A stretch of 59,877 nt of DNA, filler included, from Basidioascus undulatus (lineage: Eukaryota), in assembly GCA_000826855.1 (NCBI GenBank). It is 4 parts of 4 records of this genome, joined end to end, with 100 filler letters (N's around TTAATTAATTAA, not from the genome) between each part and the next. Parts side by side here need not be neighbours in the genome. Positions count along the whole stretch, not along the records: positions 40,019 to 49,902 come from JTLS01001202.1; 3 more parts are not named here. One strand, written 5' to 3'. Each line of letters starts with the position of its first letter. The stretch's first letter is position 1. The position numbers and the translations under genes were made by a program. Below, one piece after another: positions 47,405-48,870 of the stretch. Below the pieces are notes generated by a model, which saw only the letters and a list, made by a program, of their open reading frames with translations, was not told where the DNA came from and searched no databases.

Positions 47405-48870
47405 GCCATACCCGAAGCACACCCTTCTGTCCGTGAGGGGTGGAGATCTTGTCGCCGGTGACGGCGAGCCCGTACCTCTGCGCTTCTACCCTCAGGTCAC
47501 CCGCGTCTGCCGTGGACTTCGAGACTTCAATGCCATCAGACTCCTCTAGGACACGGTCTCCTCCCCTACTTGCCTCACTAGTGACGACCTCTGCCCGCGC
47601 CTACGGGGGTAGTACTTCCACCACGGGTGCTCAGACATGCGCACCCTCCTTCCCATCTCAGGACACCGCTCGCTTGCCATAAGAATGTGTTACTTCGTGA
47701 GGTGTATGAGAAGAGGCCCCTATCCATGGCTGTCTGAGAGATCATGACCGCATCCTCGTAGTCATCGCCGTAGTTGGCGAGACACATGACGAGGTCTTCC
47801 CCCGGCGGGCACTGCACCAGGCCTATGTCTGGGTCGTCGGGAATATCCTTCATTAGCTTCTCGCCCATCGTCGTGAAAGTGAGCGGCTTGGACAAAGGGA
47901 CTGGAGCTATGAGGGAAAATGCCACCTGATGGGGAGCACATACCGCCTGGGGACCTGTACCGCTGCGAGTAGAGTCCTAGGGGGCCTGTCCGAGGTGAGG
48001 AACGGGATGAGGCTGAAGTGCGTAGAGTAGAGATCCTCCACCCGCGCGCCCATGGTGGGCGCCCGGATGCCGGATGGGTACGTGGACCGATGGAGAGACG
48101 TGGAATCCATCGCGTCGTACCTTCATACTCGGCCTAACTAGGACACCCGACGATATTGAAATCACTGCCGTCCTAGACTCTGTTGAGATATGCATGGTAG
48201 GCCTCGATTCAAAGGCCAATGAAGTCTGTTGCATACGCTTGGAGACCGAGACGATCGTTGCCTCGCTACAATGCAGCATGATCCCCATGCAGAACAACAA
48301 CCACTCGCTGTCCTCATGTTTGCATCGCAGCAGGGCTCCCGTAACCACACCCAGGGTTGCTCTCGAGAATATCCTCACGGACAACTTGTGACACACGTAT
48401 ACTGACCTACCCGCAGGCATACCGGACGTAAGCCTATCGAGCGGGTCGCAGATGATCTGGGGCAGTGGCCTCCCCGCGCTACTCCATCCCTGGGGTGTCC
48501 TGAATACTAGCACAGTACCCCTGCAGTCCCACAGAGTACCGCTCAATAGCGCAGCGGATAGGGCCGTTGCTAAGGGGTTTGCGAATTGGACCGTATTTAC
48601 ACACATCACAGGCGGCGCACACACAGTGTAGTATCCATCGGGGCCCTCTATCATATGTTGGAAGGGGTTGTCGAACTTACGGAGAGGGTAGAACGAAGCC
48701 TTGTTGGGAGCTCTGTCGTACTCCGCGGGGGAGCCATAGTCCTACGCCATCCCACCTGCATCCCTGTATGCGAGGCATGCCTTCCGTAGGGTGAATGTTA
48801 CCTCAAGCTGAGAGCACCCAAGGGCTTTCAAGAAACCATACATCTTCACGGACATCACGCTCGCATGGGG
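47405..48870 (-). pseudogene. Intronless relic of a divergent RNA polymerase beta (Rpb2-like) subunit of probable linear-plasmid or viral origin
   Basis: Rpb2-like motifs in collinear order across frameshifts: ISISSGVLVRP; IPFLTSDRPPRTLLAAVQVP/QAV; SKPLTFTT; PPGEDLVMCLANYGDDYEDAVMISQTAMDRGLFS; TGDKISTPHGQKGV (47459-47418, in a frame absent from the ORF track). In-frame TAG at 48744-48742. Confidence 0.85.

Follow-up and report, generated by a model that had tools for sequence, protein, structure and literature searches.

Within a 59,877-nucleotide stretch of the Basidioascus undulatus genome assembly GCA_000826855.1 (the window, to which all positions without a locus prefix refer), positions 47403-48810 carry, on the minus strand, a decayed and truncated copy of a gene for a reduced Rpb2/beta-type RNA polymerase subunit, which we refer to as the fossil. 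We consider it very probable that the fossil is an endogenised fragment of the beta/Rpb2-like subunit gene of a compact double-stranded DNA (dsDNA) virus-like element. An earlier note, made from the sequence alone, had read the locus as the remains of a fungal linear plasmid or DNA virus-like element; below we set out the homology, the placement, the donor gene content and the host locus, and weigh the alternatives that each of these bears on.

The fossil was mapped by hmmsearch with a profile (A1) of 29 relatives and 814 positions, which aligns to the window in six in-frame, collinear pieces amounting to 452 codons (Table 1). The earlier note had counted ~480 codons in five frames; its order of motifs holds and its counts do not, there being six pieces rather than five frames because one junction is an in-frame internal deletion. 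All four motif strings that it quoted were located in translated minus-strand frames: PFLTSDRPPR in frame 48113-47955, KPL and PGEDLVMCLANYGDDYEDAVMISQTAMDRGLF in frame 47952-47692, and TGDKISTPHGQKGV in frame 47543-47403. PFLTSDRPPR holds the invariant P-R of the family and the YEDAV...DRGLF block of piece 4 its invariant E-D, so that with GDK..HGQKG all superfamily blocks are present in the fossil and in order. Piece 4 also aligns to yeast Rpb2 816-852 and to positions 63-102 of Pfam Rpb2_6, while the family-specific N-terminal half is matched by piece 1. The strongest match comes from pieces 2 and 4 taken together (profile 256-507, domain E 1.1e-51), and this score, along with the mapped lesions, bears out the proposal that the locus is the fossil of a divergent, shortened two-barrel second subunit.

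The lesions leave little doubt about the state of the copy. Upstream of piece 1, about 41 N-terminal profile positions are absent; the junction at 48414/48415 marks an internal deletion of ~85 family positions (172-255); a single base (48114) separates pieces 2 and 3; and homology ends at 47403/47404, where the last 214 of the 814 profile positions (the rest of domain 6, domain 7 and the Cys clamp) are missing. With one in-frame stop, four frame changes, the internal deletion and both ends truncated, the fossil is therefore a pseudogene fragment and not a working member of the family, and the window copy is dead, without likely function. No introns are required, as had been claimed, the frame changes falling between adjoining or overlapping stretches. 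Among the family columns that the fossil covers, the family residue is kept in 20 of 21 invariant ones and in 19 of 22 that are at least 90% conserved; its low identity to the relatives is therefore owed less to decay than to an unsampled lineage. With a GC content of 57.6%, against 59.2% for the window, the fossil now resembles host DNA, so that its composition would say little on the moderately GC-rich donor inferred in the earlier note, and no skew of the kind left by repeat-induced point mutation was seen in it (indices 0.88 and 1.07). Neither a second copy nor any other repeat was found within the window, and around the fossil a search for flanking terminal or direct repeats and target-site duplications gave only chance matches of 12-13 nt.

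Homology to polymerases was examined both directly and through the relatives. Pfam RNA_pol_Rpb2_6, the model that had been suggested as a check, was matched in two of the four frames scanned, at collinear model positions 63-102 and 222-237, but below cut-off (E 0.023 and 0.022, 14.3 bits each against 23.4). Among solved chains in the PDB, the best frame did no better than E 1.2, in matches over the E-D block to the second subunits of yeast, Komagataella and archaea, and phmmer searches of the PDB with the 83-aa and 254-aa frames gave one unrelated match (E 0.68) and none, respectively. A one-frame read-through of 388 residues (P0001, with TAG written as X) was then compared by phmmer with 1.84 billion representative proteins. 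It gave 38 matches with E<=1e-3, of which 20 had E<=1e-10; no match reached E<=1e-30, the best having E 2.7e-29 and 32% identity, and the majority are proteins of 770-865 aa. The relatives as a whole are ~770-880 aa long, typically about 835 aa. Among the 31 scanned with Pfam, 24 carry Rpb2 domain 6 (PF00562) above cut-off, domain 7 passes its cut-off in one and falls short of it in several, and neither Rpb2 domains 1-5 nor any Rpb1 domain was detected.

The A1 profile ties this family to the polymerases of known structure, matching archaeal Rpo2 (1.6e-34), RPC2 (1.6e-31), RPB2 (1.1e-30) and RPA135 (1.1e-26), as well as plant Pol IV/V subunit 2 (1.2e-25), vaccinia rpo132 (2.1e-23) and bacterial beta (~1e-21 to 1e-27). 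Only profile positions 397-793 can be aligned to solved chains, and the first ~400 residues are family-specific. Domain 7, the Cys clamp and a domain 6 that bears the P-R, E-D and GDK...HGQKG blocks are thus common to the family and the canonical second subunits, but the family differs from these in its length (770-880 aa rather than 1100-1250 aa) and in that only its C-terminal half aligns. On sequence evidence, then, the fossil is a fragment of a member of the Rpb2/beta superfamily, to which it is firmly linked via the family. A listing of family proteins held 48 members at 90% clustering, the longest contigs being repeatedly 24-40 kb, and the informative source names in it were Hirsutella minnesotensis HIM_11634, Aspergillus hancockii BBP40_010724 and the JGI label 'RNA polymerase Rpb2, domain 6', a few further entries being named just 'hypothetical protein'. 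The literature covered, with subscription journals and supplements outside the search, yielded no description of the family or of the two named locus tags, in agreement with the earlier suggestion that the family is undescribed.

To place the fossil, 44 rows and 746 columns were analysed in IQ-TREE (LG+G4, short search), with 25 family rows and 19 canonical rows, the latter comprising eight IMG/VR giant-virus contigs, metagenome rows, among them split archaeal-type genes, and three proteins of full architecture, of which one is of RNA polymerase I (Pol I) type. Family and canonical rows are split with a support of 100 in the Shimodaira-Hasegawa-like approximate likelihood ratio test (SH-aLRT). 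The fossil read-through falls within a 19-row family group (support 96) and, weakly, beside the relative P0005 (support 82); an 84-row FastTree gave the same picture. This placement bears on the idea that the fossil is a decayed duplicate of the fungus's own Rpa2, Rpb2 or Rpc2. Housekeeping pseudogenes do occur, and the motifs are common to all two-barrel polymerases, yet we regard such an origin as having a close to negligible probability: the match to solved Rpb2, yeast Rpb2 included, is no better than E 1.2, against about 1e-51 to the reduced family, whose members lack domains 1-5; the fossil shares the N-terminal half of the family, which fits no canonical domain; it lies across the fully supported split from canonical rows, of which one is of Pol I type and none a named fungal Pol II or Pol III; and, as nearly all invariant family residues are kept, its low identity to Rpb2 is not a product of decay. 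The earlier note had likewise set the nuclear second subunits aside.

A second comparison is with giant viruses. When IMG/VR was searched by alignment, the best 80 of 144 matches aligned solely to family residues 420-840, at 23-28% identity, and included no family member, only canonical giant-virus RPB2; a pattern search of the same database with a single relative (P0002) gave seven matches, none of which was confirmed. Twelve giant-virus open reading frames (ORFs) of 912-1850 aa were extracted, and the eight of these that entered the tree all lie beyond the support-100 split. Judged by grouping and by architecture, the fossil's family is not the RPB2 of Nucleocytoviricota. Endogenous elements resembling nucleocytoplasmic large DNA viruses (NCLDVs), the 'fundsalphaviruses', have been reported from 15 early-diverging fungal genomes, where they group with giant viruses (Pithovirus) and where RPB2 has as neighbours a D5 helicase-primase, a family-B DNA polymerase, a methyltransferase and a split RPB1 (Gong, Zhang and Han 2020, PMC7017919). 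They too are fossils in the nuclear genomes of fungi, there of dsDNA viruses with polymerase genes of their own, and some carry stops and frame shifts. Unlike them, the present family stands apart from the nine giant-virus-type rows in the tree and combines a ~835 aa subunit that has no recognisable Rpb2 domains 1-5 with contigs of 20-40 kb and a basidiomycete-like host.

Relatives were also sought in metagenomes, where 513 of 597 pattern matches were confirmed and the best 80 of these 513 loci were characterised. Eight of the 80 (L001-L008) are family-type, two (L009 and L010) are short derivatives, and the remainder are canonical polymerases. The two derivatives are short open frames (L009:3161-3619 and L010:312-770; 209 and 176 aa) on contigs of 47-48% GC, which fuse profile 378-484 directly to 576-631 without a change of frame, keep P-R/E-D and GDK..HGQKG, and are 39-44% identical to P0002.

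The gene content of the family-type contigs supports the claim that the relatives reside on compact virus-like DNA elements with predicted partner genes. The four long loci that were read (L003, L004, L007 and L008; Table 1) are 94-105% covered by ATG-initiated ORFs of at least 100 aa on both strands, introns not being required; family contigs are compact, at 20-40 kb, and the GC content of the relatives ranges from 31 to 56%. A separate protein of ~650 aa with Rpb1 domain 2 is encoded by L003 (7.2e-13) and L008 (7.1e-07); these beta-prime-like proteins carry ADFDGDE or LDYDGDE, forms of the DFDGD metal motif. Pfam further recognised NADAR and RNase H domains, fused or separate, a DUF5906/AAA protein resembling D5-like NTPases (a DNA primase in PHROGs, 5.7e-07), an APH-like kinase and a 3CxxC zinc protein. 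A PF00136 family-B DNA polymerase is present in L008 only (1.3e-37), and its best solved relatives are archaeal PolB, delta and alpha. The earlier note had anticipated a number of partner genes; those recovered are the beta-prime-like subunit, the helicase-like NTPase, a DNA polymerase and, probably, the capping enzyme, and those not recovered are a protein-primed PolB and a capsid protein. Among 41 donor ORFs compared with PHROGs, only the NTPase matched, to 'DNA primase' families.

Three of the four loci encode a fusion protein that begins with a TFIIS/RPA12-type ribbon (RPA12 E 0.0026), in which the R-x-A-D-E loop is kept. Its body contains the motifs KPDGE, PTDG, KIKDxKS, RVDKxxPN and VGAGDGQ, which, read by eye against capping-enzyme motifs, we take to mark a guanylyltransferase and a methyltransferase; the body is thus probably a capping enzyme. 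We know of no other protein in which transcript cleavage and capping are fused.

Many genes of these loci are preceded by a palindrome of the form C[AG][AG]C, 3-8 nt, G[CT][CT]G, typically GCAAC-N3-GTTGC, located 20-40 nt upstream of the start codon (examples are L003:287-297, 7069-7080 and 16270-16280, and L004:1320-1330 and 9917-9927). In L003, 12 of 14 palindromes fall in the 4.7% of bases that lie no more than 70 nt upstream of ORFs, and 14 of 16 genes are preceded by one; the corresponding values are 11 of 25 instances and 12 of 19 genes in L004, 4 of 14 and 5 of 16 in L007, and 0 of 8 and 0 of 15 in L008. The palindrome, often common to divergent gene pairs, frequently has TTTTAAAA slightly further upstream. 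Together the two look like a promoter/terminator pair specific to the element. The same four loci also encode a conserved protein of 525-640 aa (A2; L004:6381-8054, L007:5722-7299, L003:4241-6061 and L008:2738-4657, all on the minus strand) with N-terminal motifs ..GERPY..TDI.P..ASAMSYD.. and ..GILLLNV.. and a long low-complexity tail. It was considered as a uracil-DNA glycosylase on a by-eye likeness only; its profile has no PDB or Pfam match, and no assignment is made.

When ORFs of at least 70 aa from L001-L008 were compared with the window, only the Rpb2-like ORFs and their antisense shadows matched, all within 47397-48813. Elsewhere, a weak tblastn match at 36260-36400 (15 of 47 positions identical, E 1e-4, with several hundred queries) and two more (E 0.005 and 0.007) were judged to be chance.

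The plasmid part of the earlier proposal named yeast-type cytoplasmic linear killer/helper plasmids, with pGKL2 ORF6 as the model. ORF6 of pGKL2 is a fusion of beta and beta-prime. None of the 31 relatives is fused to an Rpb1 part, the ~650 aa beta-prime-like protein being the product of a separate gene; the one DNA polymerase recognised belongs to PF00136, nearest to archaeal, delta and alpha enzymes, and is not of the protein-primed type; a D5-like NTPase is present; and the contigs, at 31-56% GC, are 20-40 kb and not 9-13 kb long. These differences of architecture tell against the model, and we consider a pGKL2-type plasmid a very unlikely source. The lifestyle logic is nonetheless shared, each being a small fungal dsDNA element with its own reduced two-barrel RNA polymerase and a capping enzyme (here a probable one), and nuclear captures of such plasmids in fungi are documented in a 2026 paper (PMC13348850). 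As described there, yeast linear plasmids measure 9-16 kb and encode a fusion of a protein-primed polymerase with the terminal protein, and the killer-plasmid genes detected as integrations in filamentous ascomycetes (Pezizomycotina) were confined to those for toxin, chitinase and immunity, with none of the housekeeping genes among them (PMC13348850).

The predicted transcription set of the family also resembles the LEF-8/LEF-9/LEF-4/LEF-5 set of baculoviruses, which combines much-shortened beta-like and beta-prime-like subunits with a capping enzyme and a TFIIS-ribbon protein. On the ribbon-capping fusion, Baculo_LEF5_C and LEF-4 gave E 0.0057 and 0.08, both below cut-off, and the LEF-8 and LEF-9 models had no match at E<=0.01 in any family member.

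The host side of the locus is provided by TIM17 (Table 1), whose best named relatives are those of Agaricomycotina (76-85% identity), the host therefore being basidiomycete-like. Its intron is supported by a contig joint in a further public run (X3) that skips 67 nt, GT..AG on the minus strand. The spacer that leads from the end of the fossil to the upstream region of TIM17 shows no similarity to any donor ORF. Two other public runs, X1 and X2, from two studies dated 2025 and 2014, contain 0.91 and 0.90 of the sampled words of 46300-49800. In these runs, TIM17-side contigs of 12.4 kb and 4.7 kb cover 46300-47441 and enter the fossil by 38 bases, and contigs of 1136 and 1126 bases cover it from 47412/47422 to 48547, in each case with 0 differences. 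The depth of the fossil is in line with that of the TIM17 side (42 and 40 in X1, 26 and 20 in X2). The junction with TIM17-side DNA, on which the earlier note made its reading depend, is thus bridged by contigs in two runs from two studies.

These data also bear on whether foreign DNA, from a contaminant or through a chimeric assembly, was misjoined to fungal DNA. The unitigs break at 47412-47441 and at 48547, and no single contig of the public runs spans both TIM17 and the whole fragment, as a misjoin would have it. We nevertheless hold such an artefact to be extremely improbable: the bridging contigs agree without a difference in data of 2014 and 2025, the depths match those of the nuclear neighbours, the copy carries a stop and frame shifts, its GC content is host-like, and the breaks coincide with repeated segments common to sister copies.

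Those sister copies are visible in the same runs. At 47353-47469 and 48406-48873, variant contigs 90-99% alike occur, and depths add up to 102-192 in one run and to 56-147 in the other. Contigs have loose ends at the break points of the fossil (47404 in X1, 47406 in X2 and 48422 in both), past which other copies continue. Beyond 47404/47406 they read, in frame and by hand translation, ..P-EHDMPFTVD and ..W-SEHDMPFTMD, fitting the family consensus x-K-x4-EDMP after GQKGV; beyond 48422 they read ..PPAPLSEQI, also translated by hand, which fits the PLSAH block missing from the fossil. The same genome therefore holds at least one fuller copy, and the window copy belongs, in shortened form, to a small family of copies there. 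The other copies may be separate integrations, duplicates, or alleles of a longer insert. In X3, the only contig on the fossil is a variant from another copy, at 48662-48775.

A family of copies raises the alternative that a host process, such as transposon capture or segmental duplication, spread the fragment, so that the window copy would be secondary while its ultimate origin would still be a virus-like element. The existence of several such close copies in one genome is in keeping with this, as are the summed depth over the shared parts, at 2.5 to 7 times that of local single-copy sequence, and the 44 and 41 contig pieces found on 3.5 kb; retrotransposon sequences are, moreover, reported beside endogenous fungal NCLDV-like elements (PMC7017919). 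At the fossil itself, no transposon feature and no terminal, direct or other repeat was found beyond the short chance matches, and the sister copies extend past both break points as polymerase gene and not as transposon, as expected of several partial insertions or of decay of a larger insert. We therefore judge host-driven spread to be unlikely.

Returning to an endogenised virus-like element, we propose the following history. The living relatives are densely coding, intron-less elements of 20-40 kb with their own transcription set, made up of a ~835 aa beta-like subunit, a ~650 aa beta-prime-like subunit with DFDGD, and a TFIIS-type ribbon fused to the probable capping enzyme. For replication and repair they carry a D5-like NTPase and an RNase H/NADAR protein, to which one locus adds a family-B DNA polymerase of the classical kind. 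The combination of an own polymerase, ribbon-capping and replication genes, a compact intron-less layout and a GC content unlike that of any one host would make such elements independent of the nuclear machinery in replication and transcription, as poxvirus-like viruses and yeast killer plasmids are. The donors would accordingly have been virus-like and extrachromosomal or cytoplasmic. A member of an unsampled branch of the family would then have entered the nuclear genome of a basidiomycete-like fungus, presumably as an accident of infection and fairly recently, and the window copy would subsequently have been cut down beside TIM17, to persist as an inert record of the integration. More tentatively, and as a possibility to which we lean less than evenly, a so far undescribed lineage of self-transcribing dsDNA virus-like elements, ~20-40 kb in size, could exist in Dikarya, with the fossil as its first trace. 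Transcription in this lineage would rely on palindromic promoters of its own, on a TFIIS-capping fusion and on an RNA polymerase reduced to two subunits, and one of its members would have been recently active here and have left fuller, perhaps intact, copies.

Several observations weigh against this history. No capsid, packaging ATPase or integrase was recognised with Pfam or PHROGs in the ~80 kb of the four donor contigs, and most donor ORFs have no match in either database; 'virus' and 'plasmid-like element' are therefore not distinguished. Within the parts read, the DNA polymerase occurs in one of the four long loci and the beta-prime-like protein in two. The Pfam hints of capping functions are below threshold (mRNA_cap_C 0.015, LEF-4 0.08, Methyltransf_23 0.006), and AlphaFold2 gave no usable fold for the ribbon-capping fusion (predicted local distance difference test score 37, from a shallow alignment of three sequences). 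The nearest relative of the fossil is just 35-37% identical, so the actual donor lineage is unsampled, and the only two family members with organism names are both from ascomycetes. The reference side of the tree holds no named fungal Pol II or Pol III, for which the PDB E-values stand in. As for the host linkage, one of the two runs is possibly the window's own source, which would leave one independent data set in support of it, and the continuous span from TIM17 through the entire fossil is interrupted because of the unitig breaks at 47412-47441.

Endogenous fossils of viral-type polymerases are already known from fungi; the interest of this one lies in the host group and the unusual donors. 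The known fossils of large DNA viruses in fungi come from early-diverging phyla, and the words Ascomycota, Basidiomycota and Dikarya are absent from the available text of that study (PMC7017919), whereas the present locus lies in a basidiomycete nuclear genome. It ties such a genome to a rare family, with 38 representatives among 1.84 billion proteins. According to the 2026 paper, Ascomycota and Basidiomycota have so far yielded no dsDNA virus (PMC13348850), and this apparent absence would end if the more tentative reading, a self-transcribing lineage in Dikarya, is true. The family profile, the partner genes, the promoter-like motif and a species with fuller copies now offer handles on the questions that follow, namely whether living viruses or plasmids of this kind exist in Dikarya, what the lower size limit of a self-transcribing eukaryotic DNA element is, and how the stripped-down polymerase is related to those of giant viruses, killer plasmids and baculoviruses.

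Table 1. Features of the fossil, its host locus and the donor loci; profile positions are those of A1.
Feature	Position	Strand	Description
Piece 1	48415..48810	-	profile 42-171; domain E 2.2e-18; in-frame TAG at 48742-48744
Piece 2	48115..48414	-	profile 256 to ~357; frame as piece 1
Piece 3	47955..48113	-	profile ~359-420; other frame; E 2.3e-12; PFLTSDRPPR
Piece 4	47692..47952	-	profile ~420-507; first frame resumed after two extra bases; KPL and YEDAV...DRGLF
Piece 5	47588..47686	-	profile 504-540; third frame; E 1.5e-07; family WWK motif
Piece 6	47403..47543	-	profile 554-600; E 7.2e-12; GDK...HGQKG, TGDKISTPHGQKGV; Pfam Rpb2_6 222-237
Spacer	47174..47402	.	229 bp; 41% GC; CpG 0.54 observed/expected; fossil end to TIM17 upstream region
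TIM17	46376..47173	-	open frame with Tim17 domain, Pfam E 1.1e-28; intron 46440-46506
Donor locus L003			19.6 kb read of 32.3; GC 31%
Donor locus L004			22.3 kb read of 27.4; GC 43%
Donor locus L007			17.9 kb read of 23.9; GC 45%
Donor locus L008			19.8 kb read of 20.3; GC 50%
Ribbon-capping (probable) fusion	L004:15956-18094	-	710-750 aa
Ribbon-capping (probable) fusion	L003:9674-11914	-	710-750 aa
Ribbon-capping (probable) fusion	L008:516-2720	+	710-750 aa

On the other side of the fossil from TIM17, a plus-strand gene occupies 49245-49900 and contains two GT..AG introns of 67-69 nt (49551-49617 and 49690-49758), as judged from X3 joints. X3 is recorded as 'DNA?', and its contigs skip GT..AG stretches of 67-69 nt both in TIM17 (46378-46797) and in this gene (49517-49800), as spliced RNA would. 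The gene, which extends into the N block at 49903-50002, encodes a repetitive stretch rich in Lys, Pro, Val and Glu (..EKPVYKIVEKPVIKEKIVEKPVE..), and its summed depth is 5-9 times that of its neighbours, so that related repeats must lie elsewhere in the genome. Finally, 44-base runs of N occur in three pairs ~10 kb apart (29933-30032, 39919-40018 and 49903-50002), representing masked stretches.

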